This document shows, piece after piece, positions 8,956 through 38,497 of a stretch of 64,000 nucleotides of DNA (within the stretch, counting starts at the first letter, position 1; every line of letters begins with the position of its first letter). The notes under the pieces are model-generated. The model saw only the letters and a list, made by a program, of their open reading frames with translations, did no database searches and had not been told where the DNA came from. The position numbers and the translations under genes are program-made. This stretch comes from an uncultured Chloroflexia bacterium. GTDB taxonomy: Bacteria > Chloroflexota > Limnocylindria > Limnocylindrales > CSP1-4. Location: positions 14-64,013 of the forward strand of contig CAVOVX010000007.1 of NCBI GenBank assembly GCA_963699965.1. Reading direction: 5' to 3'.

Positions 8956-9001
8956 CAAGTTCCCCCACCCTCGCCTCGGCGTGGTCCTTTGTCGTCCGTT
9001 G

Positions 9002-9015
9002 CGCAACCGATTTCT
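9002..9015. promoter_or_regulatory. Weaker copy (11/14, inverted orientation) of the LacI-type operator: CGCAACCGATTTCT, preceded by TTGCGCAA
   Basis: The reverse complement reads AGAAATCGGTTGCG and shares the AATCGGTTGC core with sites B and C. It lies 59 nt upstream of ATG 9074. Confidence 0.35.
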
Positions 9016-10100: not shown

Positions 10101-10114
10101 TGCAAACGGTTGCA
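10101..10114. promoter_or_regulatory. LacI-type operator site A: TGCAAACGGTTGCA
   Basis: Fits the TGnAAnCGnTTnCA pattern exactly. It lies 25 nt upstream of the P450 GTG (10140), with GGAGGG at 10128-10133. Confidence 0.65.
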
Positions 10115-10139
10115 CGATCCACGACCGGAGGGCCACAGT

Positions 10140-12217: not shown

Positions 12218-14823
12218 TCACGAGCTCTCCCGTTTGGCCGTACCGATCCGCCTGCGGAGGTCGGCTCCGCTCGCCGCGATCCGGTCCACCATCCGGGTCC
12301 GCTGAGCCGGGTCCGCGATGGTGGCCATGGAGTCCAGCCATCGTACGGTGCCGTCGATGACCGCGAGGATCGCCTCGGCGTCCGACGTGACGCACAGCGG
12401 CCGGTCGACGACCTCCACGTAGACCGGCGACGTATGGGCGGCCATGCTCGTGTTGTAGGCCGACCGGATCTCGTAGTCGCTGCGCGACCTGGCCGCGATC
12501 CAGGACCCCGCCGCGATGGAGATCTCGGCGGCGAGCTGGAGGTCGTCCGTCGCCCGGTCGACCGTTCGCTCGGCCACGACGCGACCGTTCACGACGAGCT
12601 CGACGGACCGGATGATCGATTGGGCCGCTCGAGCCCGGGCGTGCACGGTGAGCCGGCCGCCGCCCGCGGGCAGGACCAGGACGTCGCCGGGTTCGTGCCC
12701 ATCGACCGACAGCGCCAGCATCGGACCGGAGGTCGCAAACGTCCGTCCGGCACGAACCGCCGCGGACCAGGCGGCGAACGTCGCCGCCGCGTCGGGATCG
12801 AGCCGGGCGTAGGTCCGGATGGCGCCGACCGGCATCTCGGCCGACATCTTGTCGGTCCCACCCAGGACCGGCACCCGGTAGCCGCAATTGAGGAAGCGGT
12901 ACCACTCGCTGATCGACGGGTTGTCGAGGCCAGGAGCGAACGTCTGCATCTCGACGGCGTCGATCCGGCCGGCCACGATCTCGGCAGCGATCTCGGCGAA
13001 CGGCAACGGGAAGTGCGCCCCGACGACGAGGCCGCCCTCGGCGTGGCAGCGGTCCGCCCAGTCGCCGAGCAGCTCGGTGACGGCTCCCCCGATCCGGCCC
13101 TCGGGCCCGCCGCCCGAGGCGAGCGGAACGGTGGGCCGGCGCGCTCCGAGCAGGGCGAGATGGCCGAGCACGTTCTGGCGGTTCTCGGTCCCGACGATGA
13201 CGATGTGACGACCGTCGGGATCGGCCTGTGAGCCCCAGGCGAGGTCGGTGACGTTGGTGAACTCGTCGCCCAGCTGGGTCGCCAGCAGGTGGACGAACAC
13301 GACGTCCTCGGCGGCCGCCTGGAGGAGCGCCGTCGAGGGGGCCAGGAAGTGGACATGGGAGTCCGCGGAGCGCCAGCCGTCCGGCCGCAGATCGATCGCT
13401 CGCTCGAGCGCGACCGTGACGTCACGAGTCCCCGGCTCGACGACCAGCGTGCGACGCACAGGGCGGTGATCGAACCCCTTCACGACCTCGATCGCCACCT
13501 CGCCCAGCGGCAGGTCGATCGAGAACGCGCCGGGCACGTACGCGTAGGTGTCACCTCCGAGGATCAACCCGGCGCCAGAGTCCTCCAGGAGCCCCGGATT
13601 GATCTCCTCGCGGTGACCGAGCGGCGGCAGGTAGCGCCCGTCCGCGGCCACGAACCGCACCCGGGACGGCGTTGGCGCGTCGTCGGCCAGGATCCGGACG
13701 TCGACCCGGACCTCGGGCGTCGGCAGCGGACGGATCGTGATCCCGCCGTCCGGGCTCGTCGTCCGGGAGCCGAGCCCGGCGACCGCGACCTCCCAGTCGC
13801 CGAACGTCAGCCGCGCGTCGGGCGCTGCAGCGACGTCGAGGACTGTTCGCGCTGATCCGCCAGCTCGATTGGAGCCGTCGCGGGTGAGTGGCTCCGCGGA
13901 TCCCCAGCCGACCGGTCCACGGTCCGGGCCGTCGTCCGACCCGCGCGGCAGCGGGAGCGGTCGGGCCCCGATGGCGACCCCCAGGTCCACCTCGGGCAGG
14001 CCGTCTGCCGGGCCTTCGACCAGGAGCTGCCGGCGTGGCTCCAGGACGAGCGGGTCCGCGGTGCCCGCGAAGAGGGTCAGCGCCGCAAGGACGACCGCCG
14101 TGCCCGGACGGCCTCCGCCGAGCGGCACGAGACGCAGCTCGACCGGATCGCCATCGCCCAGCGGGATGGCGTGGAGCCAGTAGGTCGCGTCGTCGTCCGC
14201 GGTCGGGACGAAGTCGGCGATGCCCACCTGGGCAGCGCCCCACGAGCCGGGCAGCATCGCGAGCAGCCCGGCCTGGCCGGCGGCGACGCGGCGGCCCGGT
14301 TCCTGCCGTGGATGTGGGCCACGCCAGTCGAGCGTCTCGTCCGCCCGGTGACCGATCGCCGCGAACGGGATGAACCCCCAGCCGATGATCCCGTCTGCGA
14401 TCTCGAATTGACGGCGGATCTCGACGGCTCGGGTCGTGCCATCGGCGAACGTGATCGCGTACCGGGCGAGCCGCTCGCCGGTCGGCAGGACCCAGCCCAC
14501 GGGTGTTTCGGACGCTCGCTTCCCCGCGGCATCGCGCCAGCTGTCCGCGAAGTGGGCCACCACGAGGTGGCTGGCTCGGCCCTGACCCCGGAGGTCGATC
14601 GTCAGCTCGTCATCGAGGAGCAGCCAGCGCCGTCCCGCAGCCCGTCGTCCGAGCTCGAACGGGAGGCCCCGGAACACGACGGGGCCGTCGGGCAGCCGCG
14701 CCAGGGCGGACCGGTACGCGGATCGAGCCGTTCGCCCAATTCGGCATCGGACGCGTTCCACGCCGCCGACAGGTCCACCGGACGCGCCAGAGGCGTCGCG
14801 ATGCGGCCTCGCCCGATGGCCAT
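12218..14823 (-). CDS. Large (about 868 aa) uncharacterised protein, paralog 1. N-terminal half unknown; C-terminal metal-dependent hydrolase-like domain. One frame break near 14720.
   Basis: ATG 14823 (MAIGRGRIATPLARPVDLSAAWNASDAEL), then the 898-aa ORF frame. Motifs ADSHVHF, GTENRQNVLGHLALLG, VVGAHFPLP and GGTDKMS give an HxH...H...H...D pattern. About 50-70% identical to the gene at 27013-29588. Confidence 0.7.
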
Positions 14824-14879
14824 GGCTGCGACCCTCCCGACCGATATTGACGCGAGGAGAGTTGCGATGATACCTTCGT

Positions 14880-14893
14880 TGCAATCGGTTGCG
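14880..14893. promoter_or_regulatory. LacI-type operator site B: TGCAATCGGTTGCG, in the 83-bp divergent region
   Basis: 13 nt upstream of the iolD ATG (14907, RBS AAGGAGGG) and 56 nt upstream of the divergent large gene (14823). Overlaps the palindromic octamer TTGCGCAA (14889-14896). Confidence 0.65.
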
Positions 14894-14906
14894 CAAGGAG
14901 GGATCG

Positions 14907-18049: not shown

Positions 18050-18065
18050 CCGTCGGCGGCGCGCC

Positions 18066-20947: not shown

Positions 20948-20973
20948 CAACGGAACTCCGTCAGGAGCGGTCG

Positions 20974-21816: not shown

Positions 21817-21863
21817 CCCGCGGTTCACAATGTTGACGTTGCGCAGGGCCGATGCTACGGTTG

Positions 21864-21877
21864 CGCAATCGGTTGCA
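21864..21877. promoter_or_regulatory. LacI-type operator site C: CGCAATCGGTTGCA, upstream of the lacI-family gene
   Basis: Preceded by TTGCGCAA (21861-21868) and followed by AAGGGG, then GTG 21887 / ATG 21899 of a short ORF. Confidence 0.6.
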
Positions 21878-22070
21878 GCACAAGGGGTGCGGTCCACGAT
21901 GCGTGCTTCTCCGCGCGATTTCGCTGCGGTCGAGGTCGCGTGGTCGGACGACCCGCGCTGCCATCGCGGCGGGTCGCCGCACCTGGCCCGCCAGCGGTCC
22001 GAGCTGGGCACCGGCGAAGATCGGCCCGACCGCGCCGTGCGCGTCGCGGTCTAGGCGGAGCCGCCGGCCC

Positions 22071-23153
22071 GTGCCATCCAGCGACGGCCAGCGCCGGACC
22101 GACGGTCAACACCGGACGGGCGGCCCGCGTCGTCGGATCCTCCTCAAGGATGTCGCCCAGCGAGCGAACGTCTCGGGCTCGACCGCGTCGCGGGCCCTGG
22201 CCGACGACAAGCGGATCAGCGCTGCCACCCGGCAGCTGGTCAAGGCCGCCGCCGCCGAGCTGCACTACGTGCCGGATGCGACGGCCCGCAGCCTTCGGGT
22301 CCGGCGGACTCGGACGCTGGGTCTCCTCCTGCCCGACCTGCGCGACCCGGTCCACGGCCAGGTCGCGTCGGCGTTCGAGCAGGAGGCGCGCCAGCAGGGG
22401 TACGTCGTGATGGTCGTGGCTGGCGAACGCGACCTCGCGCGCGAGCGGCTCGCCTTGAGGGCCTTTGCCGAGCACGGGACCGATGGGGTTGCGGTCGTGT
22501 CCGGCGTGTTGCCGCCGAACGAGCTGCGCGAGCGGGTCGATCCCGACCGGCTCGTCCTCGTCTGGCCCGACCATCGGAGCCTGCCTCGACACGCTGGCCC
22601 TAACGTCCCGGGCGTCATCCAGACCGATGACGCGAGCGGCGTGCGGGCTGCGGTTGACCACCTGGTCGACAGCGGCTGCCGGCGGGTCGCCTATGCCGAG
22701 AGCGGGCGGCGCGCCTCGAACACGATCCGAGCCGAGACCGTCGCCGCGACCCTCCGCGATCGAGGCATCCGCGCTCCGCTGCGCAGGTTCCCCGCCCCGG
22801 TCGATTCGTGGCGGGCACCCGCGGCGCTCGCTGCGGAGATCGCTGCGGACCCCCCCGAGGCCCTCGTCTGCTACGACGACCAGCTCGCGCTCGGGCTCAT
22901 GGACGCGCTCCGTGGCCTGGGCGTCCGGATCCCCGACGACATGGGCATCGTCGGGTTCGACGGGATCCCCTTTGCCGCCATCTCGAACCCCCGGCTGACG
23001 ACCGTGGTGGTTCCGTCGGCGGAGATGGGCCGGGCTGCGGCGTCGTCGGCGATCCAGGCCGTACACGACGGCCGGCTGCCGGACGGCGTGCTGTTGCCGG
23101 TCGAGATGGTCGTCCGCGAGAGTACCCGGGTCGTGTCCGTGAGCCGTCCATGA
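22071..23153 (+). CDS. LacI family transcriptional regulator (intact core; start uncertain)
   Basis: HTH ILLKDVAQRANVSGSTASRALADDKRISAATRQLVKAAAAELHYVPDATARSLR, then a periplasmic-binding-fold effector domain. The start is taken as the in-frame GTG at 22071 with GGAG upstream. The ORF track opens at 21852. Confidence 0.85.
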   Translation: MPSSDGQRRTDGQHRTGGPRRRILLKDVAQRANVSGSTASRALADDKRISAATRQLVKAAAAELHYVPDATARSLRVRRTRTLGLLLPDLRDPVHGQVASAFEQEARQQGYVVMVVAGERDLARERLALRAFAEHGTDGVAVVSGVLPPNELRERVDPDRLVLVWPDHRSLPRHAGPNVPGVIQTDDASGVRAAVDHLVDSGCRRVAYAESGRRASNTIRAETVAATLRDRGIRAPLRRFPAPVDSWRAPAALAAEIAADPPEALVCYDDQLALGLMDALRGLGVRIPDDMGIVGFDGIPFAAISNPRLTTVVVPSAEMGRAAASSAIQAVHDGRLPDGVLLPVEMVVRESTRVVSVSRP

Positions 23154-23208
23154 TCGTCGACCGCCGGCCGCGGATGCCGACCGAGCTCCGCCTCGCCCGG
23201 TCGTTCCG

Positions 23209-24106
23209 TTGCCGCTGACACCGGATGGGGGCGTCGACCCCGGGGTCGACCTGGCCGACCTCGCCCGGCGCGGCCGGCTGCTCGTGATCGACTCGGTCGC
23301 GCACAGCGGTGCCGGGCACATCGGCGGCCCGCTATCCGCGATGGACCTCCTCGTCGCGCTCTACTTCAGGGTCCTGCGCATTCGTCCGGACGCACCCGAC
23401 TGGCCTGACCGCGATCGGTTCATCCTGTCGAAGGGCCACTCCGCGATCGGACTCTACGTGGTCATGGCCCTGCGCGGCTACTTCCCGGTCGAGGAGCTCG
23501 CGACCTTCGATGCGGGTGACAGCCGGCTGCAGGGGCACCCCGACATGACGCGGCTACCTGGGCTCGAGGCATCGACGGGTTCGCTCGGCCAGGGCCTCGC
23601 CGTCGGGCTCGGGATCGCCCTCGGAGCCCGCCTGCGCGGGCTCGGGTTCCACACGTTCGTGATGCTCGGCGACGGCGAGACCCAGGAAGGGATGGTCTGG
23701 GAGAGCGTGATGGTCGCGGCCAAGTACGGGCTCGGCAATCTCACCGCGATCGTCGACTGCAACGGCCTCCAGCAGTACGGCTGGCCGCCGGTGCCGGGCG
23801 AGGATGCGCGCGGCGACCGACGCGACCCGCTCGCCGGGACCCGCCTCCGCGACGCCCTCGAAGCCTTCGGCTGGCGGGTCCTGGAGATCGACGGGCACGA
23901 CCATGAGGCGATCGTGGCCGCCTGCGAGGACGCTCGCGGCGCTGGCCGGGCCGGCCGGCCGACGGCGATCCTGGCGGCAACCGTCAAGGGGCGGGGATTG
24001 TCGTTCACGGAGGGTCGCACCGAGTGGCACGCGCGCGTGGCGACGGCCGACGACGTTGCGGCGGCCCGAGTCGGAGCTCGGTCTCGCCGAGGACGCCGGG
24101 TCGTGA
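23209..24106 (+). CDS. Transketolase, N-terminal (ThDP pyrophosphate-binding) section. As written it is fused to the C-terminal section; a 1-nt shift near 24065 restores a stop at 24104.
   Basis: HSGAGHIGGPLSAMDLLVALYF, ILSKGHSAIGLYV, RLQGHPD, STGSLGQGLAVGLG, MLGDGETQEGMVWES, DCNGLQQ. The alternative frame ends ...ELGLAEDAGS-TGA. Confidence 0.75.
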
Positions 24107-25071
24107 CCCGCCCGATGCGTGACGCGTGGGCGGAGACCCTGCGCGAGCTGGCCGTCGACAACCCCGACCTGCTCGTCCTCGACGGCGACCTCGCCTCGTC
24201 GACCCGAGCCGATCGGTTCGCCGCCGCCCATCCGGACCGGTTCCTGCAGATGGGCATCGCCGAGCAGAACCTGGTCGGGGTGGCGGCCGGCCTGGCGACC
24301 CTGGGTTACGTTCCGTGGCTGTCGTCGTTCGCCGTGTTCTTCACCCATCGCGCGATCGACCCGATCAGGATGCTCGTCGCCCAGACCCATGCCAACGTCA
24401 AGATCGGTGCGGCGTACACGGGCCTCCTGACCGGCTTCACCGGGAAGACACACCAGGACGTCGAGGACCTCGCGATCATGCGGGCGATGCCGGGCATGAC
24501 GGTCATCGCCCCGTGCGATGCAAGCGAGTGCGTGGCGGCCGTGAGATGGGCGACCGAGACCCAGGGACCGGTCTATCTCCGCCTGGCGCGCGATGCGGGC
24601 CCGGACGTCTTCGACGACGCCTACCGGTTCGAGCCGAGCCGGGTCATCCGATTGCGCACCGGGTCCGACGTCCTGTTGGTCTCGACCGGTGTCCAGACGA
24701 CGCGGACCCTCGAGGCGGCCGCGATCCTCGCGTCGAGGGGGATCTCGGCCGGCGTCCTCCACGTCCCCTGCCTGAAACCGGTCGATGCGGACGCGATCGC
24801 CGAGGCGGGACGCGGCGTCCCGCTCGTCGTCACGACCGAGGAGCACACGGTCCTGGGCGGTCTCGGCGGGCTGGTCGCCGAGATCCTCGGCGAGCGCGCG
24901 CCGCGCCGGCTCGCGCGGATCGGGATCGCCGACACCTGGGGCGAATCGGCCCCAAACGCCTTCCTGCTCGACCGGCACGGGCTGTCGGCGGAGCGCGTCG
25001 CGGAGCGCGTGGCGCTCGAGCTGTCGCAGGTCGAGCTCGTCGAGGGTGCCGCAAGCGAGTCCGGACGATAG
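24103..25071 (+). CDS. Transketolase, C-terminal (pyrimidine-binding plus C-terminal domain) section
   Basis: GTG 24103 (overlapping the TGA) or ATG 24115. MRDAWAETLRELA, RFLQMGIAEQNLVGVAAGLA, GKTHQDVEDLAIMRAMPGMTVIAPCD, VTTEEHTVLGGLGG. Confidence 0.75.
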   Translation: MTRPMRDAWAETLRELAVDNPDLLVLDGDLASSTRADRFAAAHPDRFLQMGIAEQNLVGVAAGLATLGYVPWLSSFAVFFTHRAIDPIRMLVAQTHANVKIGAAYTGLLTGFTGKTHQDVEDLAIMRAMPGMTVIAPCDASECVAAVRWATETQGPVYLRLARDAGPDVFDDAYRFEPSRVIRLRTGSDVLLVSTGVQTTRTLEAAAILASRGISAGVLHVPCLKPVDADAIAEAGRGVPLVVTTEEHTVLGGLGGLVAEILGERAPRRLARIGIADTWGESAPNAFLLDRHGLSAERVAERVALELSQVELVEGAASESGR

Positions 25072-25087
25072 CGGTCGAGGAGATCAG

Positions 25088-26132
25088 ATGAGCGGATTCA
25101 GGGTGAAGAACCCGAGCAGCATCGGCGTCGCGTTCCTCGGCGTCGGACGGATCGGAACGTCCCACCTCCGGACGCTGGCCGGGATCGGCAACGCCCGGAT
25201 CGTCGTCGTCGCAGACCTGGATCCCTCGGAAGCCGAGCGCGGGCGGGAGATCGGGCGCGCCGAGCGGGCCACCGCCGATGCCCTCGACGCGATCGGCGAC
25301 CCGGCCGTCGAGGCCGTCGTCATCGCGACGCCGACCAGCACGCACGCGGGCCTCATCGAGGCGGCGCTGCGCGCCGGCAAGGCGATCTGGAGCGAGAAGC
25401 CGATCGCCCTCGACCTCGCCGAGACGACTCGCGTCGTCGAGCTCTGGCGCGAGACCGGCCTGCCGGTCCAGATGGGGTTCATGCGCCGGTTCGACCCTGG
25501 CTACGTTCGGGCCAAGGAGCTCATCGAGTCGGGGGAGCTGGGCCGCGTGGAGCAGTTCCGTGCCTATTCACGCGACACCTACCCGCCGCCGCCCAAGTTC
25601 ATCCGCGACAGCGGCGGGTCGTTCCTCGACATGAGCGTCCACGACTTCGACCTGGCCCGGTTCCTCGTCGGCGAGGTCGAGGAGGTGTCCGCCTGGGGCA
25701 GCAACATCATCGACAAGCGGTTCGAGGAAGGCGGCGACGTGGATACCGCGGTGACCATGCTCCGCTTCCGCAACGGTGCCCTCGGGGTGGTCGAGATGTC
25801 GCGCCGCTCCGCGTGGGGGTACGACATCCGGACCGAGGTCGCCGGCGCGCTCGGGCAAGGTCGTCGTCGAGGCCGCCCACAAGACGCCGCTGACCTGGTC
25901 GCGTCGGTTCGGCTTCGAGGGCGATCACTACGAGAACTTCCCCGATCGGTTCGAGGTCGCCTACCGGCTCGAGTTCGAGGCGTTCTTCCGAACCCTGGCC
26001 GAAGGCGGCACGCCGACGCCCGGGCCCGAGGAGGCCCTCGAGACGCTCCGACTCGCCCTCGCCGCCAAGCGGAGCTGGCTGGAAGGGCGGCCGGTCCGGG
26101 TCGACGAGGTCGCGGCCGGGGTGGATCGATGA
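25088..26132 (+). CDS. Gfo/Idh/MocA family oxidoreductase (inositol 2-dehydrogenase-like), one frame break near 25855
   Basis: IGVAFLGVGRIGTSHLRTL, AVVIATPTSTHAGLIEAALRAGKAIWSEKPIAL, GGSFLDMSVHDFDLARFLVG, then VVVEAAHKTPL...YRLEFEAFFRTLAEGGTPTPGPEEAL. Confidence 0.75.
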
Positions 26133-26967
26133 GCCCCGCCGTGACCCGCCACCTGCGCCCCAGGGGCAGTCTGGGGACGCATCCTCGAGATCACGCCGGA
26201 GAGCATCGGCTGGCGATACCTGTCGTTCCGGGTGCGTCGCCCTGGGACCCGGCGAGACGGTCGATGCCGACACGGGTGAGACCGAGGTCGCGCTGGTCCC
26301 GCTCGGCGGTTCCGGCTCGTTCACGTTCGGGGGCGCGACGTACCCGATCTCCCGCCGGGACGTGTTCAGCGAGAAGCCGCACGTCCTCTACCTGCCGCCG
26401 CGATCGGCGTTTGCGATCCGCGCCGAGGAGGCGTTCGAGGTCGCGATCGGGGCGGCTCCGGCCGTCGGTCGTTATCCCGCCCGCCTGTACCTGCCGGGCG
26501 AGCTGCCGAGCTTCGTCCGCGGCGGCGCCAACGTGAGCCCGCGGGGTGACCGCGACCCTCGATCCCGGGTTCCCGTCAGAGCGGCTCATCGCCTACGAGA
26601 TCCTCACCCCGAGCGGCAACTGGTCGAGCTTTCCGCCACATCGCCACGACGGTCGGTTCGGGACGACCTACCACGAGGAGACCTACTACTACCGGCTCTC
26701 ACCACGCGATGGCTTCGCGATCCAGCGCCTGTACACCCGCGACACCGAGCTCGACGTCTCGATTGCGGCGGCCGACGGCGACCTGGTGCTCGTCCACGAG
26801 GGCTATCCATACGGTCGCGACGGCGCCGGGGACAAACGCCTACTACCTCAACTTCCTCGCCGGTGACTCCAAGCCCGTGGTCCAGCTCAACGACCCGGCC
26901 TACGACTGGATCGTCGAGGACTGGGCAGGGCGGCCGATCGGCGATTCCGCTCGAACCGGCGACCTGA
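26129..26967 (+). pseudogene. Second IolB-like 5-deoxy-glucuronate isomerase paralog, at least 5 frame breaks
   Basis: The ATG overlaps the upstream stop (ATGA). ILEITPESIGWRYLSFRV / GETEVALVPLGGSGSFTFGG..DVFSEKPHVLYLPP / ERLIAYEILTPSGNWSSFPPHRHD..EETYYYRL..VLVHEGYP / GTNAYYLNFLAGD...DWAGRP / AIPLEPAT stop at 26965. Confidence 0.7.
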
Positions 26968-27012
26968 CCCGGGTTGCCGAGGGTGCGCGCCCCCGGCCGG
27001 GCCGGACCCGAG

Positions 27013-29588
27013 TCACCGGTCCAATCCACTGCGGCGACGGCGGAACGTCTCGAGGCTGGCGTCGAAGAAGCGCACCATCCGGGCGCGATCGGCCGGCTCC
27101 TGCACGGCCGCCAGCTCGGCGACCCAGGTCCTGGCGCCGGCGATGACCTGCTCGACCACGTCGCCTCCGCCGCCGGCGCGACGAGCGGCCGATCCTCGAC
27201 CTCGACGTAGACCGGCGACGTATGGGCCGCCATCGACGTCGCGAAGGCAGACCGGATCTCGGCCGGCTTCGCGACCGGGCGGCGATCCAGGCGCCGGCCG
27301 CGATCTCGACGGTCTCGTGGAGCGTCAGCTCGGCGGCGTCGGGCGAGCTCGTGGCCGCGACGACCCGCCCGTTGACGACCAGCTCCAGGTCGCTGAGCAC
27401 GGCCTGGGCGGCCCGCGCCCGGGCCACGACCTCGAGCCGGCCGCTCGATCGCAGCCGGATCACGTCGCCTGGCTCGTGGCCCTCGACCGTCAGCTCGAGG
27501 ATCGGACCCGAGGTGACGAAGGTCCGACCCGCTCGGACGGCCGACGCCCACGATTCGAACGTGAGCGGGCCGTCAATCTGAAGGTGACCGTAGGTGCGGA
27601 CCGCCCCGATCGGGACCTCGGCCGACATCTTGTCGGTCCCGGCCACCACCGGGAGCCGGTAGCCGAGGTTGAGGAAGCGGTACCACTCGAGCACGGACGG
27701 GTCGTCGAGCCCGGGCGCCAGCGCCTGCGTCTCGATCGCGTCGATCTTGCCGGCGACGATGTCGGCGGCGATCTCCGCGTAGGGCAGCGGGAAGTGGGCC
27801 GCGACGACGAGCCCCCCGGCCGCCCGGCAGCGATCCGCCCAGTCGGCCAGCAGGACGCCCAGGGCGCCGCCCAGCCGGCCCTCGGGCGGACCGCGCTGGC
27901 GAACGGGATCACCGGCCGGTGAGCGCCGAGCAGGGCCAGGTGGCCGAGCATGTTCTGGCGGTTCTCGGTCCCGACGACCACCATCCGGCGACCCGATGGG
28001 TCGGCCATCGAGCCCCACGGCAGGTCGGTCACGTTCGTGTACAGGTCGCCCCACTGGGCGGCGAGCAGGTTCACGAGGTCGACGTCCTCGGCCGCCGCCT
28101 GGAGGAGGGCGGTCGAGGGCGCCAGGAAGTGGACGTGGCTGTCGGCGGTGACCCAGCGCCCGCCGTGCAGGTCGATCGTCCGGTCGAGCGGGAGCTCGAG
28201 GTGGCCGGTCGACCGGTCGACCTCGATCCTGCTGCGATGCGGTGCCCGGTCGAACCCGCCGACGACCTCGACCTCGACCGCGCCGACCGGCAGCTCGATC
28301 GCGAACCGGCCCGGGACGTAGGCATAGGCCGACGATCCCAGGATGAGATCGCCACCGGTGTCCTCGTAGAACCCCGGGTTGACCTCGTCGCGATGGCCGA
28401 CCGGCGGCAGGTAGCGACCGTCGGCGGCGGTGAACCGGACCCGGCCGGGCACGCGTTCGCCGGTCGTGCCGTCCACGATCTCCACCTCGACCGGCACCCG
28501 CGCCGGCCGGAGGACCTCGATCGATCGCCGGCGGCCGGGGTCGTACAGCGGCGCTCCCGCCAGGAGGTCCGGCCCGGGGACGTCCCAATCGTCCAGGGTC
28601 AAGATCGCGTCGGGTGACAGCGCGAGGTCGACGAGGCTGGATCCGGGTCTCGCCGCCTCTGGATCGGCACGGGCCGTTCCCCATCCGACGATCTCCCCGC
28701 CTGGCTCGCCGGCCGGCAACGGCGCCGGGGCGGGCAGGGTACGGATGATCGTGCCGAGGTCGACATCCGGCGGACGCCCGTCGAGGCCGCCGATCCGGAC
28801 CTGGAGCCGCGGACCACGGGCGAGCGGGTTGGCGGATCCGCGGAACAGGGTCACCGCCGCCACGATCAGGTCGCTCCCCGGCCGGCCGCCGGCCAGTGGT
28901 TCAAGCCGGAGGGCGACCGGTTCGGAACCGGCGTCGAGCTCGATCGCGTGGAGCCACAGCAGGGCATCGTCGGTTGGGCTCGGGACGTAGTCGGACATGC
29001 CCACCTGGTTTCCGCCGTACGTTCCCGGCATGATGGTCAGGGACCCGGACTGACCGGTCGCGGCGTAGCGGCCGGGTCCCTGGGCGGCATGCGGCCCGCG
29101 CCAGTCGAGGATCTCGTTCTCCAGGTGCGGGATCGCGGCAAACGCGCCCGAGCCCCAGCCGAGGATGCCGTCGTTGACCTCGAACCGGCGCCGGATGATC
29201 CGGCTCGTCGTCCGTCCCGTCCGGTCGACGATCGTGTAGCGGGCGAGCGGCTCGCCGACCGGGACGACGTGCCCGACCGCCAGCCCGGCCGGTCTCGCTC
29301 CCAGCATCGTCCCGCCACGCATCGCACAGGTGGGCCACGACGACGTGGCTGGCGGCCCGCCAGCCGGCAGGTCGACGGCTGTCGTCTCCGTCGAGGAGGA
29401 TCCAGCGCTCGGCGTCCGGCGTCCGGTCCGAGCTCGAACGGCAGGCCGTGGAAGACGCGGCGCCCGGCTGGCAGGCGAGCCAGCGCCGGCCCGTACTGGG
29501 CGTGGAACCGGGCAGCGACCTGCCGCTCGGTTGCGTTCCGAACGGGACCGAGATCGACCGTCCTGGCGAGCGGGCTCGCGCGTCCCAT
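27013..29588 (-). pseudogene. Large (about 858 aa) uncharacterised protein, paralog 2, same architecture as 12218-14823; at least 5 frame breaks
   Basis: MGRASPLARTVDLGPVRNATERQV..RLPAGRRVFHGLPFELG / ERWILLDGDD..VVAHLCDAWRDDAG / ...RVRFTAADGRYLPPVGHRDEVNPG..ADSHVHFLAPSTALLQAAAED..GTENRQNMLGHLALLG / VVAAHFPLPYAEI..AGTDKMSAE / SMAAHTSPVYVEVEDRPL / VVEQVIAGARTWVAEL..FRRRRSGLDR stop at 27013. Confidence 0.7.
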
Positions 29589-29654
29589 CAGGCTCGCTTC
29601 GGGCGCTCGGAGCGAGCTCTGTATTGACGCGTCATGGGCCGGACGCTAGCATCG

Positions 29655-29668
29655 TACAAACGGTTGCA
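29655..29668. promoter_or_regulatory. LacI-type operator site D: TACAAACGGTTGCA, in the 95-bp divergent region
   Basis: 12 nt upstream of GTG 29681 / ATG 29684 (RBS AAGAGGG) and 66 nt upstream of the divergent large gene start (29588). TAGCAT at 29647-29652 is a possible -10. Confidence 0.6.
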
Positions 29669-29683
29669 CAAGAGGGTGCCGTG

Positions 29684-30928
29684 ATGCTCGCCTCCTGTCC
29701 GACGTCCCCGTCCGACGAGACGGGGACGCGGCGACGCGTCGGTCTCGATCAGCGCGATCCGGCTACCGCGGAGAACGGCTGGCGGTGGCCCTGGCCAGCC
29801 GGCCGACGGCGTGTGCGAGCGGCTCGACAGGGCTCGGACTTGGCTGAGTCGACACCCGCCATCGAGTTGCGCCACGTCACGAAACGCTACGGCGATACGG
29901 TGGCCCTCGACGACGTGTCGATGGACATCGAGCCCGGCGAGTTCTTCTGCCTCCTCGGGCCGTCCGGCTGCGGCAAGACGACGACCCTCAACCTCATCGG
30001 CGGGTTCATCCCGATGTCATCGGGCGAGCTGCGGATCGAGGGCCGGAAGGTCAACGACCTGCCGCCCCACAGGCGCAACGTCAACACCGTCTTCCAGAAC
30101 TACGCCCTGTTCCCCCACATGACGGTCGCCCAGAACGTCGCGTTCGGGTTGCGCATGGAGAAGCTGCCGACCGCGGAGATCGCCGTCGGACCGGCGAGTA
30201 CCTCGACCTCGTCGGGCTCGGCGGCTTCAACCGGCGGATGCCGTCCGAGATGTCCGGCGGCCAGCAGCAGCGCGTCGCGCTGGCCCGCGCCCTGGCCAAG
30301 CGTCCGGCCGTGCTGCTGCTCGACGAGCCGCTCGGTGCGCTCGACCTCAAGCTCCGCAAGCAGATGCAGACGGAGCTGTCGCGGATCCATCGCCAGGTGG
30401 GCACGACGTTCGTGTTCGTGACCCACGACCAGGAGGAGGCCCTCTCGATGGCGACCCGCATCGCGATCATGTCGGGCGGCAACGTCAGCCAGACCGGCAC
30501 CCCGCGCGAGGTCTACGATCATCCGGTCGACCGGTTCGTGGCCAGACTTCGTGGGCGAGACGAATTTCGTCTCGGGCGCGGTCACGACGGAGGACGGCCG
30601 GCGGATCTTCGCGATCCCGGGACGAGGCCGGGTCGGCGGCCCCGACCGGCTCGCCCGATGGGCCGGCGACGATCATGGTCCGGCCCGAGTACGTCGTGCT
30701 GCGACCGGCCGGCGGACCCGACCCGGAGCCGGGGATCCCCGGCCGGATCGCCAACGTCGCCTTCCTCGGCGACCACACTCGGATCACCCTGACGACGGAT
30801 GCCGGCGACATCGTTGCGGTCCGTCCCCACGGCACGAATGGTCGAATCGACTCACCTGGAGGAGGAGCATGGGGGAGGAGGTGTGCGTATGGTGGCCCGC
30901 GGACGACGCCGCATTGATCGACGACTGA
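29684..30928 (+). pseudogene. ABC transporter ATP-binding protein, PotA (spermidine/putrescine) type, at least 4 frame breaks. The true start could be TTG near 29841.
   Basis: [70 protein letters not shown] / [44 protein letters not shown] / [10 protein letters not shown] / [23 protein letters not shown]. Confidence 0.75.
29703..29728 (+). other. Perfect 10-bp stem / 6-nt loop hairpin CGTCCCCGTC-CGACGA-GACGGGGACG, in the transporter leader or in an N-terminal extension
   Basis: Read directly. It is followed by the self-complementary CGACGCGTCG (29733-29742). Confidence 0.3.
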
Positions 30929-30964
30929 CGCAGGTCCGACACGCGGACGATGGAAGGGACTGGA

Positions 30965-32160
30965 ATGACTGATCCGACGCGCGATATCAGCCGACGGGAC
31001 TTCCTCAGAGTGGTGGGAGCGGCCGGGGCAGTCGGTCGGGCTCGGCGGCATCGTCGCCGCCTGCTCGACGGCGGCCAGCAGCTCGGCACCTGCGGCCCCC
31101 AGCGCTGCGGCGGCTTCGGCCGCGGCGACCAGCGCCGCCGCCTCCCCGTCGGCGGCACGCAGCAGCGCCGACCGGCACGTTCAACTGGATGACCTGGGGC
31201 GACCACTGGTACCAGGCCCAGGTCGACGACATCGCCAGCCGCGAACAACATCAAGGTCAACAGCACGCTCTTCAGCGACAACATCGACGCGCTACACGAA
31301 GCTCAAGGAGGTCGGCGGGCAGCTCGACATGGTGTCGGGCGATGCGCTGTGGGTGCCCCACTACTTCGAGTCTGGGCTGATCGAGGCCTGGGACATCAAC
31401 TCGCTGGCGGTCGCCAAGCAGCTCTACTCGATCGCCCGGTCGTTCCCGATCTGGACGAAGCCGGAGGGCTACCTCGGCTACCCGTTCGGCTGGTCGCCCG
31501 TCCAGGTCTACTACGACCCGGCCAAGGTCTCGCCGGCGCCCGATTCCTGGGAGGTCCTCCTCGACCCGAAGTACAAGAAGCGGGTCGTCGTCGAGGACCA
31601 GCCGGTCGAGATCATGGCCTACATGGGCAAGCTCACCGGAGCGAAGAACGCCTACAGCATGACCCCCGAGGAGATCGCCAAGGCCAAGGAAGCCGCTCAA
31701 GCAGCTCAAGCCGAACGTCCTCACGCTGGCCAACCAGGCCACCGACACCATCGCCATGCTCAAGACCGGGGAGGCCTGGATCGCCACCGGCAACCTCGGC
31801 ACGGAGGCGCGGGTCAAGGACCAGGGCGGCCCGGACCTCAAGGTCTTCACCCCCAAGGAGGGGACCATCGGCTGGATGGACTCCGAGATGATCGTCAAGG
31901 GCGGCGCCAACAAGAAGCTCATCATGCCGTTCCTCGAGCTGGCCGAGCAGGCCGAGTACATCGCCGCCAACTTCCTGCTCAACGGCCGGCCGCTGTTCAA
32001 CGAGGCGGCCTACAAGATCCTGGTCAACCAGGGCCAGCAGGAACGAGCCGACCGGTTCCTGTACAACAAGCCCGAGACGGTCCAGACGATGGACCTCAAG
32101 GGCCCGGGCACCTCGACCCAGGCCGTCGATCGACGCCTTCAACGAGGTGTTCGGCGCTAG
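30965..32160 (+). pseudogene. ABC transporter substrate-binding lipoprotein, PotD/PotF (polyamine) type, with Tat signal; at least 4 frame breaks
   Basis: MTDPTRDISRRDFLRVVGAAGAVG / GGIVAACSTAAS (lipobox) / MTWGDHWYQAQVDDIA / YTKLKEVGGQLDMVSGDALWVPHYFESGLIEAWD...GYPFGWSPVQVYYD / IAMLKTGEAWIATGNLG..GTIGWMDSEMIVKGGANKK. Confidence 0.7.
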
Positions 32161-32186
32161 CCGATCGGCCGGGATCGGACTCAGGC

Positions 32187-33115
32187 ATGACGACCGAGAT
32201 CCGCCGGCGGGGCCGATGAGGCTCCGCTCGCCGGGATCGCGCGTCGGGGCTCGGCGCGCGACTGGGTCGGGCCGCTCCGTTCCTGCCGGGCCTCGCTCAT
32301 GCTGGTCGTCCTGTTCCTCGTCCCGATGGCGATCATGTTCGTCTTCAGCTTCTGGCGGACGAACGACGAACTTCGACGTCGTCCGCGACGTGGAACCTCG
32401 ACAACTACGTCAGGTTCTTCAACCAGCCCGACCTACGTCCGGACGTTCCTCAAGACGCTGGTCATGGGCGGCGCTGGTGACCGCTCGCCGGCCTGGCGCA
32501 TCGCGCTCGCCGTTCACCTACTTCCTCGTCCGCTACGTCAGCCGGCGCTGGCAGCGCGTCGTCCTGCTGGCGGTCATCGTCCCGTTCTGGACGAGCTACC
32601 TGCTGCGGGTCTACGCGTGGCAGGCGATCCTCGGTGAGACGGGCGCGCTCAACCAGTCCTCATGGGCCTCGGCCTCATCGAGGAGCCGTCGACGCTGTTC
32701 GTCTACAACGACGTCGGGGTCTTCATCGTGCTCGTGTACGTCTACTTCCCGTTCGCGGCGCTGGCCCTCTACGCGGCGCTCGAGAAGTTCGACTTCACCC
32801 AGCTCAACGCCGCCCAGGACCTGGGCGCGCGACCCGGACCAGGCGTTCCGGCACATCCTGCTGCCGCAGATCCGGACCGGGATCATCACCGCCTGCATCT
32901 TCGTGTTCATCCCGATCCTCGGCGAGTTCCTGACGCCCGACCCTGGTCGGCGGGGCCCAGGGCATCCTGATCGCGAACCTCATCGTCAACTTCTTCCGAC
33001 AGGCGCCAGATCCCGAGGGCGCCGCCCTGGCGATCGTCATCGCCGCGTTCGTCACGATCGTGCTCATCGTCTTCCGGCGATCCTGCGGGTCGAGGACGTG
33101 GTGGCCCGTGGCTAG
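32187..33115 (+). pseudogene. ABC transporter permease (PotB-like), at least 5 frame breaks
   Basis: MLVVLFLVPMAIMFVFSFW / NYVRFF / YVRTFLKTLVM / FLVRYVSRRWQRVVLLAVIVPFWTSYLLRVYAWQAILGETGALN / MGLGLIEEPSTLFVYNDVGVFIVLVYVYFPFAALALYAALEKFDFTQLNAAQDLGA / AFRHILLPQIRTGIITACIFVFIPILGEFLTP. Confidence 0.65.
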
Positions 33116-33138
33116 GCGGATCGAGCCCGCTCGAGACG

Positions 33139-33965
33139 ATGCCGGTCAGCCCGTACGCGCGGCTGACGCGCGGCCTGCTCGCGGTCCTGGCCGGCGCGAT
33201 CCTGGCGTTCCTCTACCTGCCGATCGCGTTCCTCATCCTGTTCTCGTTCGAGAAGGCGGACACGCCGGGCTTCCCGATCACCGGCCTGACCCTGCACTGG
33301 TACGAGGTGATGCTCGCCGACAGCGCCGATCCACTCGGCGCTGCTCAACTCGGTGCGCGGTGGCGATCGTCGTGGCGATCCTGGCGACGGTCATCGGGAC
33401 GATGGCCGCGTTCGCCGCTCGTGCGCGGCGGCATCCGCTTCGCCGGCACCGGCCCGGCTCGCTGTTCACCCTGCCGATCATGATCCCGGGCGTGCTGCAT
33501 CGGGATCGGCCTGCTGATCTTCTTCCGACGCGCGCTGGGGCTCCCGCTCGGGCTGCACACGGTCGTCGCCGGCCACCTCGTGTTCACGACGCCGTTCGTC
33601 GTGCTCATCGTGGCGGCCCGGCTGCAGGGCTTCGACCGACGCCTCGAGTGGGCGGCCGCCGACCTCGGGGCGAGACCGGGCCAGACCCTCCGCCACATCG
33701 TCCTGCCGCTCATCGCGCCGGCGATCATCGCCGGCGCGCTGCTCAGCGTGACCCTCTCGATCGACGAGTTCGTCATCACCTTCTTCACGATCGGGCCGCA
33801 GCTGACCCTGCCGCATCTACATCTACACGCAGATCAAGTTCGGGGTCACCCCCGAGGTCAACGCGGTGGCGACGGTCATCCTCGTCGCCACGCTCGGCGG
33901 CGTTCGCCATCGGCACGCTCCTGCTGAGCGGCGGGCGTCGCTTCCGCCGACAAGGGTCGGGATGA
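33139..33965 (+). pseudogene. ABC transporter permease (PotC-like), at least 4 frame breaks
   Basis: LAVLAGAILAFLYLPIAFLILFSFEKADTPGFPITGLTLHWYEVML / LNSVRVAIVVAILATVIGTMAAFA / FTLPIMIPGV / VVAGHLVFTTPFVVLIVAARLQGFDRRLEWAAADLGARPGQTLRHIVLPLIAPAIIAGALLSVTLSIDEFVITFFTIGP. Confidence 0.65.
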
Positions 33966-34017
33966 GTCCGATCGACGGGCCGGCTGCCGGTCGGCGCCGG
34001 CCGGATCGGTCCGGATC

Positions 34018-35052
34018 GTGACCGCGCCGACCGGAACGCCGCTAGTCCGTGGCGGGTTGCTCGGGCCGCGGCCGGATCCGAGCGAGCCGATCCGGATCGG
34101 TTTCCAGATCTGGGAACAGGCCGTCGCCTGGCCCGAACTGATGGCGGCCGGCGAGCGAATCGAGGCACTAGGGTTCGCCAGCCTGTTCGCCAACGATCAC
34201 TTCATGCCGATCCTGGGCGATGCTGACGGCCCGGTCGTCGGATCCGCCGGCTCCGTCTTCGAGGGCTGGCTGACGCTCGCGGCCTGGGCCGCTCGCACGA
34301 CCCGGGTGCCGCTCGGGATCCTGGTCTAGCTCGGTCAGCTACCGCAACGTCGGGCTGACGGTCAAGATGGCGACTACGCTCGATCACGCCAGCAACGGCC
34401 GGGCGATGCTCGGCCTGGGCGCCGGCTGGCACGCGCCCGAGCACTGGGCGTTCGGCTACGACCTGCTCTCGTTGGGCGATCGGGTGAGCCGCTTCGACGA
34501 GGCCAGCCGGGTCGCCCGGGGCCTGCTCGATGGCGAGTCGGTGACGTTCGATGGGCGCTGGGTTCGCGCTGCCGGCATGCGCAACGACCCCCGCCGGTCC
34601 AGGCGCGGATGCCGTTGCTGATCGGCGGCGAGCGGCGAGACGACGGACGCTGCGGATCGTCGCCCGCGACGCCGACATCTGGAACGGCGAGGGCGACCCG
34701 GCGACGTACGCTCACAAGTCCGCGCGTGCTGGACCGGCACTGCGCCGAGCTCGGTCGCGACCCGCTCGCGATCCGGCGGACCGTCGGCGTGCCACCGGTC
34801 TGCATCCGGGCGACGCGCGAGGCGGCCGTGGACGCGCTGGCGGCGACCTTCGAGCGCAACGGGAGCAGTCCCGCCGCCGCGCGCGCCTGGGCGGCGAGCT
34901 CCCCGCTCGCCGACTCGCGGGACGCCGTGGTGCGGCTGTTCCGCGCCTGGCACGCGGCCGGTGCCGAGGAGGCGATCATCGACCAGCCGTCGCCGCTCGA
35001 CGACGAGACGATCGAGCTCCTGGCCGGCTCCGTTCGAGAGCGTCTCGGGTGA
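34018..35052 (+). pseudogene. LLM-class F420-dependent oxidoreductase, at least 3 frame breaks
   Basis: IRIGFQIWEQAVAWPELMAAGERIEALGFASLFANDHFMP..EGWLTLAAWAARTTRVPLGILV / VSYRNVGLTVKMATTLDHASNGRAMLGLGAGWHAPEHWAFGY / MPLLIGG / ..LDRHCAELGRDPLAIRRTVG. Confidence 0.65.
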
Positions 35053-35081
35053 TGGCCGTGTCGAACTGGAGGTCCTGACCG

Positions 35082-36085
35082 ATGCGCGCCGCAGTCTACG
35101 AGGGCGAGGGCCGGCTCGTCGTGCGCGACGTGCCCGATCCGACGCCGGGTCCCGACGAGGTGCTGATCGAGGTCGAGGCGTGCGGCGTGTGCGGCTCGGA
35201 CGTCCAGATCATCAACGTCCCGCCGGGCCACCCATCGACCCCGCCCGTCATCATCGGCCACGAGTTCGTCGGCTGGGTCCGGGCGGCCGGATCGGCCGTC
35301 CGTGACGCCCCGATCGGGGCGCGGGTCGTCGTCGATCCCGATCCGAAGTGCGGCGCCTGCGAACCGTGCCGCGCGGGTCGACCGGCGAACTGCACGAACA
35401 TCGTGGCCCTCGGCGTCTATCGCGACGGGGCGCTGGCCGCGCTACGTTACCGCCCCGGCCAACAGCGTGTACGCCATCTCGCCCGAGGTTCCCACCGAGC
35501 TGGCGGCCCTGGTCGAGCCGCTGTCGTGCGTCGTCAACGGGACGAACCGGGCGGCGATCCGGCCGGGCGAATCGGCGGTCGTGTTCGGAGCGGGAGCCAT
35601 CGGCTGCCTGTTCAGTGCGGTGTTCCGCGCGGCCGGCGCGGGGCGGATCGTCGCCGTCGAGCCGAGCGCCCAGCGCGCCCCGGTCGCCCTGGCCGTCGGG
35701 GCCGACTACGTCCTGACGCCCGACGAGTGGACGGCCCGCCGCGCCGAGCTCCTGCCGAGCGGAGCGGACGTCGTGGTCGACGCGGTCGGCAGCGTCCTGC
35801 CCGACGCGATCTCGGCCGCCGGCATGGGCGCCCGGGTCGTGGTCTTCGGGATGAACGGGACGGCCCGCCCGCAGGTCCACCAGGTCGAGATCGTCGAGAA
35901 GGGTCTGACGATCCTCGGCTCGTACATCTCGAACTTCACGTTCCCCGCCGCGATCCGACTCGTCGAGAGCGGCAAGCTCGAACCTCGCTCCGCTGATCAG
36001 CGCGACGATCCCGCTCGAGGACACCCTCGCCGGGATCGCCCGGATCCGATCGGGCGAGGCAGTCAAGATCGTCATCAAGCCGTAG
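35082..36085 (+). pseudogene. Zinc-dependent alcohol/polyol dehydrogenase (MDR family), 2 frame breaks
   Basis: GGAGG RBS. MRAAVYEGEGRLVVRDVPDPTPGPDEVLIEVEACGVCGSDV..IIGHEFVG..DPDPKCGACEPCRAGRPANC / EPLSCVVNG..AVVFGAGAIGCL..VVVDAVG / LAPLISATIPLEDTLAGIARIRSGEAVKIVIKP stop at 36083. Confidence 0.7.
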
Positions 36086-36107
36086 TCGCGTCCCTGGAGG
36101 AACCCCG

Positions 36108-37033
36108 ATGCCCCCGCCCTGCGGGTCGCCAGCGCCCCGGTCTCATTCGGTGTCGACGAGATCATGTTGGACGACGCCTGGATGCCGGCCCCGGACGACA
36201 TGCTCGACTGGATGGTCGACATCGGGTTCGAGGGCACCGAGCTCGGCACTCCCGGTTACCTCGGCGACGCGAGGCAGGTCAACGAGCGCCTGTCGTCGCG
36301 CGGCCTGGAGTTCGTCGGTTCGTTCATGCCCCAGCACTTCAGCCGCGCGGAGAAGGCCGACGAGGATCGCGCCTGGCTGCGCGACAACCTCCGCCTGATG
36401 AAGGAGGGCTCGCCGGCCGGCTCGCGGCCGTTCGCGATCCTGTCCGACCAGTTCGACGAACCCGACCGCCGGGCCTTCTCGGGGCGGATCCCGGACCATC
36501 CCGAGACGTGGCTGTCCGCGACTCGGTTCGACACGCTCATCGACAATCTCCACCGGGCGGCCGAGATCTGCCGGGCCGAGGGGCTCGAGCCGGTTCTCCA
36601 TCCCCACGCCGGGACCTACGTTGAGACGGCGGACGAGATCGCCCGGGTCATGGACCGGATCGACCCGTCGCTCATCGGCCTCTGCCTCGACACCGGCCAC
36701 TTCCGGTTCGGTGGCGCCGATCCGGCCACCTCCGTCCATGATTACCACGAGCTCGTTCGGCACGTCCACATCAAGGACTGTCGGACCTCGGTCATGGATG
36801 ACGTCAAGCGAGAGGGCAAGGGTCTCGACGAGGCGCTCCGCCGAGGCGTGTTCTGTCCCTTGGGCGAGGGCGACGCCGGGATTGACGCCGTCATCGAGGC
36901 GCTGCGAGCGCACGACTACACGGGCTGGCTCGTGATCGAGCAGGACCAGGCCCTTCGATCGTCGGATACGCCCCAATCGGTCATCGCCGGGCAGCGAGGC
37001 AATCGCGAGTACCTGCGCCGGCTCGGGATCTGA
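36108..37033 (+). CDS. Xylose isomerase-like TIM-barrel protein, IolE (inosose dehydratase)-like; one frame break directly after the ATG
   Basis: GGAGGAA RBS then ATG 36108, then LRVASAPVSFGVDEIMLDDAWMP...GFEGTELGTPGY...LHPHAGTYVET..GLCLDTGHFRFGG..HVHIKDC..GWLVIEQD. Confidence 0.7.
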
Positions 37034-37097
37034 CCGCGCTGGCCGGCGGCCGACGATCGGTTCGGCGGCCAACGGGTCAGCCCGTCGCGACCTGCGG

Positions 37098-38477: not shown

Positions 38478-38497
38478 GGTGCCTCCAATCCTCGATG

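Follow-up and report, generated by a model that had tools for sequence, protein, structure and literature searches.

The 64,000-nucleotide stretch analysed here (the window), from contig CAVOVX010000007.1 of an uncultured Chloroflexia bacterium, carries on its minus strand two genes for related large proteins, paralog 1 (p1) and paralog 2 (p2), divergent from an iol operon (p1) and from a transporter operon (p2). We consider it probable that p2 is a functional gene with breaks introduced by assembly errors, encoding a cytoplasmic, metal-dependent hydrolase of ~860 residues that belongs to a LacI-repressed cyclitol regulon and deconjugates an imported cyclitol or aminocyclitol derivative. The coordinates of the features are collected in Table 1.

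As it stands, the reading frame of p2 is disrupted by seven single-base indels. No single long open reading frame (ORF) covers the gene, and four overlapping ORF fragments in three frames were found on the minus strand (29037-29588, 27490-29322, 26900-28684 and 26604-27551). When the p2 region was compared with the p1 ORF (12218-14914) by tblastn, four collinear high-scoring segment pairs in frames −2, −1, −3 and −2 were obtained over 27034-29580 (E down to 2.9e-144). A frameshift-aware dynamic-programming alignment of p2 to p1 covered 851 columns at 55% identity and required five frame switches. For the frame correction we used P0001 as a guide, an intact ortholog of 858 residues encoded on the comparison contig L001. 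With this guide, seven single-base corrections led to a product of 858 residues that is free of stop codons and shows 94% identity to P0001. An earlier reading of the window, made from the sequence alone (the sequence-only reading), had counted at least five frame switches; five is indeed the number in the alignment to p1, whereas guidance by P0001 raises it to seven. The gene boundaries given there were exact, with the ATG at 29588 and the stop codon at 27013-27015, and every motif quoted there was found in the ORF translations of the four p2 fragments.

The same reading had taken p2 for a second copy of the gene at 12218-14823. In agreement with this, p1 and p2 are paralogs with significant, collinear similarity over the full length and the same domain order. 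After correction, the two proteins are 56% identical over 858 residues: 48% in residues 1-362, 62% in residues 363-858 and 72% in the catalytic core, close to the estimate by eye of about half in the N-terminal part and more in the C-terminal part. Pairwise alignment after frame correction had been named beforehand as a check, and the N-terminal similarity persisted in it: the N-domains of p1 and p2 reached a Smith-Waterman score of 794, compared to a mean of 50 for shuffled sequences (standard deviation 8, maximum 79). The true start of p1 is the ATG at 14823, which is connected with the long ORF by the −1 correction near 14719, while the mechanical ORF list (898 residues) overshoots to a GTG at 14914.

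The frame breaks in p2 are most likely assembly errors and not gene decay, because the indels follow a one-base, insertion-biased spectrum, are spread across many genes and are accompanied by undiminished purifying selection. Contig L001 is syntenic with the window over 22.7 kb. Between 22014 and 39623 the two are 93.6% identical and differ by 70 indels. Of these, 68 involve one base only, and 55 add sequence to the window, for the most part outside homopolymers. A comparison with L002, a second, independent contig, shows gaps at many of these positions too. The indels affect 13 of 15 consecutive genes, from the gene for the transketolase N-terminal subunit through the IolE-like gene at 36108-37033; seven fall in p2, five in the ATPase gene, seven in the binding protein gene and 17 and 11 in the two permease genes of the importer next to p2.

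Seven disruptions in one gene, within 17.6 kb carrying 70 indels in 13 of 15 genes, could also mean that p2 and the transporter operon form a truly decaying pseudogene region in a lineage that has lost the pathway; the gene caller of the source contig gave nothing of p2 but a 605-residue fragment (P0093). We regard such decay as very unlikely. Bacterial pseudogene decay is deletion-biased and variable in length, and this type of mutation spectrum was not seen in 22014-39623: one-base events and insertions dominate, and the corrected p2 has neither an in-frame stop codon nor a larger deletion. Relaxed constraint in p2 was not seen either. The ratio of nonsynonymous to synonymous substitution rates (Nei-Gojobori dN/dS) relative to L001 is 0.225 for p2, inside the range of the 13 indel-bearing genes (0.07-0.25), which does not lie above that of five indel-free genes (0.12-0.21). 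Nucleotide identity to L001 is equal (93.6% versus 93.8%) in the disrupted stretch and in 16906-21918, where a single indel was found. Moreover, genes beyond the regulon segment are affected too: iolD (14907-16791, plus strand), divergent from p1, needs four +1 corrections and p1 itself one −1 correction.

In other genomes the gene is mostly intact. A homology search with the corrected p2 retrieved 536 relatives, and most of the best 120 are uninterrupted proteins of ~860 residues. An uninterrupted ORF was present in 75 of 79 near-complete family copies. The four broken copies all occur in assemblies classed as long-read from their record names (4/40 versus 0/39 in the others), numbers that are small and supportive only. 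The frame switches are best read as sequence errors of the whole neighbourhood and not as a property of the p2 gene.

Two further observations concern the quality of this part of the contig. The density of indels relative to L001 changes abruptly, from one in 5 kb (16906-21918) to 70 in 17.6 kb (22014-39623) at ~93.7% identity in both stretches, which suggests a local drop of consensus quality in the source assembly, through coverage or strain mixture. In addition, a 620-residue ORF at 23209-25071 (plus strand) appears as a fused transketolase. The gene for the N-terminal subunit has lost its stop codon through one inserted base at 24074, and in L001 the subunits are encoded by two separate genes (311 and 318 residues); judged by this comparison, the fusion is an artefact.

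The sequence-only reading had described the product as an unknown protein. This does not hold for its C-terminal ~320 residues, which match the NCBIfam model NF038032 (CehA/McbA family metallohydrolase) above threshold; it stands for the N-terminal ~360 residues, for which no Pfam or PDB match was found. Residues 477-796 of the corrected p2 match NF038032 over its entire length (positions 1-315 of 315) with 145.6 bits, against a curated cut-off of 80. The scores of p1 and P0001 are 148.3 and 148.9 bits, NF038032 is the sole NCBIfam model matched by p1, and several relatives of p2 carry a CehA/McbA-type name in their source records. In 41 aligned family members, down to 55% identity, D482, H484 and H486 (ADSHVHF), E541 (GTENRQN), H549 (LGHLALLG), H598 (AAHFPLP), D652 (GTDKMS) and H789 (MAAHTSP) are invariant. 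Metal-dependent barrel hydrolases typically show such a pattern of His, Asp and Glu, and these residues would serve as metal ligands.

An AlphaFold2 model of P0001 had a mean predicted local distance difference test score (pLDDT) of 76 and a predicted template modelling score (pTM) of 0.73. Its units are a beta-rich N-domain (1-290), a small beta unit (316-358), a beta-sandwich (364-469), an alternating beta/alpha region (478-700), a second beta-sandwich (709-797) and a helical hairpin (806-854). From N- to C-terminus, the enzyme would begin with a beta-rich N-domain of ~300 residues that is specific to the family and contains a highly conserved loop. The small beta unit and an immunoglobulin (Ig)-like beta-sandwich would come next, followed by a catalytic barrel of the CehA/McbA type (DxHxH...E...H...H...D...H), the second beta-sandwich and the helical hairpin. 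Since no signal peptide was evident on direct reading of the N-terminus, the enzyme is taken as cytoplasmic.

Searches of other resources with this family gave little. At E <= 10 no Pfam family, PHP (PF02811) included, was found in p1, P0001, P0062 or P0112, and at E <= 1 nothing relevant, again including PHP, in 32 distant family members. Neither a profile from the full-length alignment nor one from a diverse core alignment gave a meaningful match to PDB sequences. A Foldseek search of the PDB with the full P0001 model, in which the barrel has segments of low pLDDT, returned generic Ig-like sandwiches (query TM-score <= 0.11) and no barrel enzyme among the top 50 matches listed.

A profile search of 1.84 billion cluster representatives yielded 943 at E <= 1e-30. 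Among these are full-length forms of ~840-870 residues and forms of ~500 residues, which start at the beta-sandwich (around residue 365 of the query) and lack the N-domain. Motifs of the p2 catalytic core recur in the consensus of the more distant ~500-residue forms. The existence of forms without an N-domain indicates that the core is a widespread unit and the N-domain a clade-specific addition.

That the N-terminal region is a real folded domain had been proposed from its conserved blocks, and we agree: it contains 45 invariant columns in 41 sequences, down to 41% identity to p1 over the N-domain. Structure prediction, which had been suggested as a check, gave a beta-rich fold with confidently predicted strands (block pLDDT 83-96 outside one loop). 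No relative of this conserved domain could be recognised. For the p1 N-domain, modelled separately (pLDDT 71), Foldseek gave no match in the PDB at E <= 0.001. Two candidate fold relatives were set aside as uninformative, namely the best plausible match, AziU3/U2 (probability 0.98, query TM-score 0.29), and jelly-roll capsid proteins (root mean square deviation ~19 Å). The most conserved stretch, GILGWG...H...DWRGPH...PGRY (P0001 residues 143-202; window ~28980-29160, minus strand), has invariant G, W, H, R and P columns and a pLDDT of ~30. A stretch that is the most conserved and yet not placed by AlphaFold may be a functional loop, or an interface between domains or in an oligomer.

The large, multi-domain, beta-rich architecture with its conserved loop would also be compatible with a regulator, sensor or structural protein whose link to the operons is no more than a common intergenic region. 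We consider this highly improbable. The putative metal ligands are invariant across the 41 relatives, the score on the hydrolase model lies above cut-off, and no DNA-binding or signalling domain was found in p1 by Pfam or NCBIfam. The ~500-residue forms, in which the motifs recur without the N-domain, also mark the catalytic core as the conserved unit.

When one genome per species was scanned, at least 353 relatives came to light, and almost all of the 73 loci returned belong to metagenome-assembled genomes (MAGs) of Chloroflexota labelled Limnocylindrales or 'Chloroflexia'. The family is essentially confined to Chloroflexota (Limnocylindrales) MAGs. To map its context, 23 reference proteins were placed on 77 loci with enough flank. 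In nearly all of these, the family gene adjoins at least one of three elements: an IolD-DegT(-IolC-IolB-IolJ-EamA-IolE) block, a LacI regulator, or an importer in the order ATPase-SBP_bac_6-permease-permease. Broad occurrence of the family without cyclitol or transport genes had been named beforehand as a refutation; it was not observed, as iolD, DegT, iol genes or the SBP_bac_6 ATP-binding cassette (ABC) transporter accompany nearly every copy. A gene for a DegT/DnrJ/EryC1-type aminotransferase adjoins iolD in the majority of loci, and many also have one for a class-III aminotransferase close by.

Genes of the p2 clade are typically divergent from the importer, those of the p1 clade from iolD or DegT. 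Both paralogs have separate orthologs in other genomes, and they occur together on one contig in at least seven of these, which points to an old duplication. As ancient paralogs with separate orthologs in many genomes, p1 and p2 may act on different substrates or at different steps, as this distribution suggests. A third clade (loci L042-L058, L061, L070-L071 and L074-L076) shares ~50-53% identity with p1 as well as with p2. Most of its loci have a single copy, placed between the importer/LacI genes and an iolD-GFO_IDH-AP_endonuc_2 block, an arrangement that may represent the state before duplication.

Both paralogs are preceded by a LacI-type near-palindromic operator with the core CAAnCGnTTG. 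An operator 56-66 nucleotides upstream of each had been noted before; the sites were found, with their near edges 57 (p1) and 67 (p2) nucleotides from the ATG. In the window, six operator matches on the two strands correspond to five distinct sites, where 0.11 matches were expected, and the copies at 8999, 10101 and 21861 extend the regulon beyond p1 and p2. Across 1.46 Mb of related loci we counted 149 sites, nearly all of them between mapped genes; the largest classes lie upstream of LacI, the family gene, IolD/DegT or the ATPase. In other genomes, 67 of 76 non-redundant upstream regions of family genes contain a CAAnCGnTTG site, mostly 55-128 nucleotides from the start, compared to ~0.04 per region expected from the overall density. 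This bears out the suggestion that the promoter architecture of operator and divergent operon is under selection.

In the p2/importer intergenic region, the operator starts three nucleotides after the −10 hexamer TAGCAT of the importer promoter and is therefore positioned to block the importer transcript. As the site lies at the start of the divergent transcript and ~60-75 nucleotides from the hydrolase ATG, one repressor could shut the PotA/SBP_bac_6 importer operon and the hydrolase gene together. By eye, weak minus-strand promoter candidates overlap the operator with their −35-like hexamers (TTGCGC-18-TATCAT for p1, TTGTGC-17-TAGCGT for p2); both are below threshold and conjectural. A leader of ~170-190 nucleotides separates the operator from the ATPase start (29672-29839) and contains a perfect 9-bp hairpin at 29704-29727 (GTCCCCGTC-N6-GACGGGGAC). 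The leader gave no Rfam match. We also rejected a coding function for it (as an N-terminal extension or leader peptide), since its ORF is not conserved across loci.

The regulon would serve the catabolism of cyclitols (inositol or inosamine) in Chloroflexota of the Limnocylindrales type. The LacI protein encoded at 22071-23153 would repress all five sites of the window. On induction, the importer would take up a cyclitol or aminocyclitol conjugate, and the hydrolase would strip its substituent (a phosphate, acyl, carbamoyl or similar ester or amide group) in the cytoplasm. The freed ring could then enter the reactions of the aminotransferase, IolG and IolE/D/B/C/J. In support of such a pathway, NCBIfam identifies IolB above cut-off (245 versus 205 bits) and an IolG-like protein just below (333 versus 355), while the IolE-like copy at the end of the transporter operon stays below (164 versus 290 bits). 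IolD, IolC, IolJ and the main IolE copy (20974-21816) were identified by Pfam families and synteny only. Further neighbours are a class-III aminotransferase, an F420/LLM-type oxidoreductase and an IolM-like Zn-dehydrogenase.

Two more specific versions of the hydrolase can be considered. The first is a phosphoesterase acting on inositol phosphates or glycerophospho-inositol, which would free inositol from phosphorylated cyclitols taken up through the SBP_bac_6 transporter and provide the bacteria with soil organic phosphate as well as carbon. The importer ATPase scores 360.8 bits on the PotA subfamily (cut-off 355.6) and 353 bits on PhnT2, the binding protein matches phnS2 weakly, and ligands that are phosphorylated, or phosphonates, are transported by some systems of the SBP_bac_6/PotA type. 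There is a relationship between CehA/McbA-type domains and PHP-type barrels, whose characterised enzymes are mostly phosphoesterases, and the family is tightly linked to what seems a complete iol pathway. Yet there is no PHP match in Pfam, and the binding protein is most similar to the polyamine-binding PotD and PotF, though far below the cut-offs of these equivalogs (66 bits versus 582 and 33 bits versus 636), so that it is PotD-type only in belonging to the fold family SBP_bac_6. Dephosphorylation does not explain the recurrent DegT-type (in most loci) and class-III aminotransferases, and pho-type regulation is not evident. We consider a phosphoesterase unlikely.

These aminotransferases would fit better with an amide, carbamate or amidino hydrolase that takes the N-substituent off an aminocyclitol, be it an inosamine derivative, a compound of the rhizopine type or a fragment of an aminoglycoside, ahead of its transamination to a keto-inositol. 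CehA and McbA, the only members of NF038032 known to us as characterised, hydrolyse carbamate esters, and a PotA/PotD-like importer would suit cationic amines. On the other hand, the DegT assignment is generic: the best NCBIfam matches of this protein are sugar-nucleotide aminotransferases, all below cut-off. The similarity to CehA is confined to the domain model, and no such catabolic pathway was found in the literature searched. This specific chemistry is likewise unlikely in our view, if slightly less so, and the broader assignment as a hydrolase of cyclitol or aminocyclitol conjugates is the one we favour.

Several points weigh against this predicted assignment. The catalytic domain is labelled by one NCBIfam model, without a Pfam, PDB-sequence or barrel-fold match, and the P0001 model has low confidence for some of the barrel and for the N-domain loop that is most conserved. 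A consensus promoter scan found no minus-strand promoter above threshold for p1 or p2, so that the geometry of the site is all that suggests operator control of the hydrolase gene. Finally, the error reading of the indels is indirect, drawn from comparisons of assembled sequence; L001 also seems to be a long-read assembly, and technology alone does not explain the local cluster of errors.

Known systems resemble the proposed one in part. CehA and McbA are large carbaryl hydrolases of ~800 residues, and p2 shares with them the end-to-end NF038032 match and the conserved His, Asp and Glu residues. They belong, however, to plasmid- or transposon-borne degradation of carbamate pesticides in Proteobacteria, whereas the p2 family sits in a cyclitol regulon of uncultured Chloroflexota. 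McbA is periplasmic, while no signal peptide is visible in the p2 family; the likeness to CehA is one of the domain model. Similar to (beta/alpha)-barrel hydrolases of the PHP/amidohydrolase type such as histidinol phosphatase and YcdX, the family has DxHxH on the first strand, followed by conserved E, H, H, D and H in a region modelled as alternating beta/alpha. In contrast to these enzymes, it has no match to PF02811 or other Pfam families, none to PDB sequences and no barrel enzyme among its listed fold hits, and its last conserved His follows an inserted beta-sandwich.

The gene cluster itself resembles iolABCDEFGHIJ/iolR of Bacillus subtilis: homologs of iolB, C, D, E, G and J lie together, promoters are divergent, and the repressor gene is preceded by an operator of its own. 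The candidate repressor is of the LacI family, whereas IolR is of the DeoR type. Compared to the classical iol pathway, the cluster adds DegT-type and class-III aminotransferases, a split transketolase, the PotA/SBP_bac_6 importer and one or two copies of the 860-residue hydrolase. Nothing pertinent was found in the literature on the family in an inositol context, on Limnocylindria and inositol, or on inosamine catabolism.

The gene map of the window summarised in Table 1 was derived from the alignment to L001. Directly downstream of p1 lies an intact ORF of 288 residues (11350-12216, minus strand), which by eye resembles a sugar-phosphate isomerase/epimerase of the AP_endonuc_2 type; the P450 gene (10110-11333, plus strand) is convergent with it. 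At gathering threshold, Rfam matched nothing in the window except two tRNA genes (5142-5214, minus strand; 53378-53451, plus strand).

Table 1. Features of the p2 locus and of related sites in the window (positions are those of the window).
Feature	Position	Strand	Basis or remark
p2, CehA/McbA-type metallohydrolase of 858 residues with N-terminal beta-rich domain	27013..29588	−	correction against P0001; NF038032 match
p2, N-terminal ~362 residues: conserved beta-rich domain and small beta unit	28501..29588	−	invariant columns, AlphaFold models; no Pfam or PDB match
p2, residues ~363-475: Ig-like or carboxypeptidase-regulatory-like beta-sandwich with RVRFTAADGRYLPP and YAYVPG motifs	28162..28500	−	model strands 364-469, Ig-like fold hits, start of ~500-residue forms
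p2, residues 477-796: NF038032 domain with beta/alpha barrel-like unit, C-terminal beta-sandwich and AAHTSP motif	27201..28158	−	NF038032 match, invariant residues
Extra base (+1) relative to orthologs	29419..29420	−	comparison with L001, P0001-guided correction
Extra base (+1) relative to orthologs, exact place ambiguous within the stretch	29385..29393	−	comparison with L001, P0001-guided correction
Missing base (−1) relative to orthologs	29356	−	comparison with L001, P0001-guided correction
Extra base (+1) relative to orthologs	29301..29302	−	comparison with L001, P0001-guided correction
Missing base (−1) relative to orthologs	27892..27895	−	p1 alignment, L001 comparison, P0001-guided correction
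Missing base (−1) relative to orthologs	27263..27264	−	p1 alignment, L001 comparison, P0001-guided correction
Missing base (−1) relative to orthologs	27162..27163	−	p1 alignment, L001 comparison, P0001-guided correction
LacI-type operator TACAAACGGTTGCACAA (core CAAACGGTTG), p2/importer intergenic region	29655..29671	.	identical in L001 and L002; flanks diverged in L002
Sigma-70-like promoter of divergent transporter operon, TTGACG-17-TAGCAT	29624..29652	+	scan: 1 found versus 0.0 in shuffles; conserved in L001 and L002
PotA-type ATPase of divergent ABC importer (importer 29840..33965)	29840-30928	+	carries indels
SBP_bac_6 binding protein of divergent ABC importer	30965-32160	+	carries indels
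Two permeases of divergent ABC importer	32187-33115, 33120-33965	+	both carry indels
Continuation of transporter operon: LLM/F420-type oxidoreductase, Zn-dependent alcohol dehydrogenase (IolM-like, below cut-off), IolE-like AP_endonuc_2 protein	34018..37033	+	
p1, 868 residues after one −1 correction near 14719, divergent from iolD-DegT-iolC-iolB-iolJ-iolE operon	12218..14823	−	
LacI-type operator TGCAATCGGTTGCGCAA, p1/iolD intergenic region	14880..14896	.	
LacI-family regulator gene, candidate repressor of the regulon	22071..23153	+	operator-like site upstream at 21861-21880
Operator copy before LacI gene	21861-21880		
Operator copy before GFO_IDH-like gene (start ~9075)	8999-9015		
Operator copy before cytochrome P450 gene (10110/10161-11333)	10101-10117		

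For the annotation of the source assembly it is relevant that single-base insertion errors in a long contig can mimic both pseudogenes and gene fusions. As such, the frame switches are most likely no more than ordinary artefacts. For enzyme discovery in this uncultured soil lineage the family offers a well-defined candidate, of moderate interest. Its conserved synteny and operator make it a clean, testable system, in which one repressor, one operator motif, one importer and one or two hydrolases would feed the iol pathway. In a bolder interpretation, to which we assign a low probability, the family would be a previously unrecognised class of enzymes by which abundant, uncultured soil Limnocylindrales unlock conjugated cyclitols. 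The unmatched N-domain, with its invariant loop GWG...H...DWRGPH...PGRY, would cover a CehA-type metal centre as a new kind of lid or module for substrate recognition, and the two paralogs would serve two different conjugates. Candidates for such conjugates are the inositol phosphates, of which soil has a large pool, or inosamine conjugates derived from plants or microbes. If the assignment as a hydrolase of imported conjugates holds, the family (943 cluster representatives at E <= 1e-30, with the shorter forms lacking the N-domain included) marks an undescribed first step of cyclitol or aminocyclitol use in a widespread soil lineage without cultured models.

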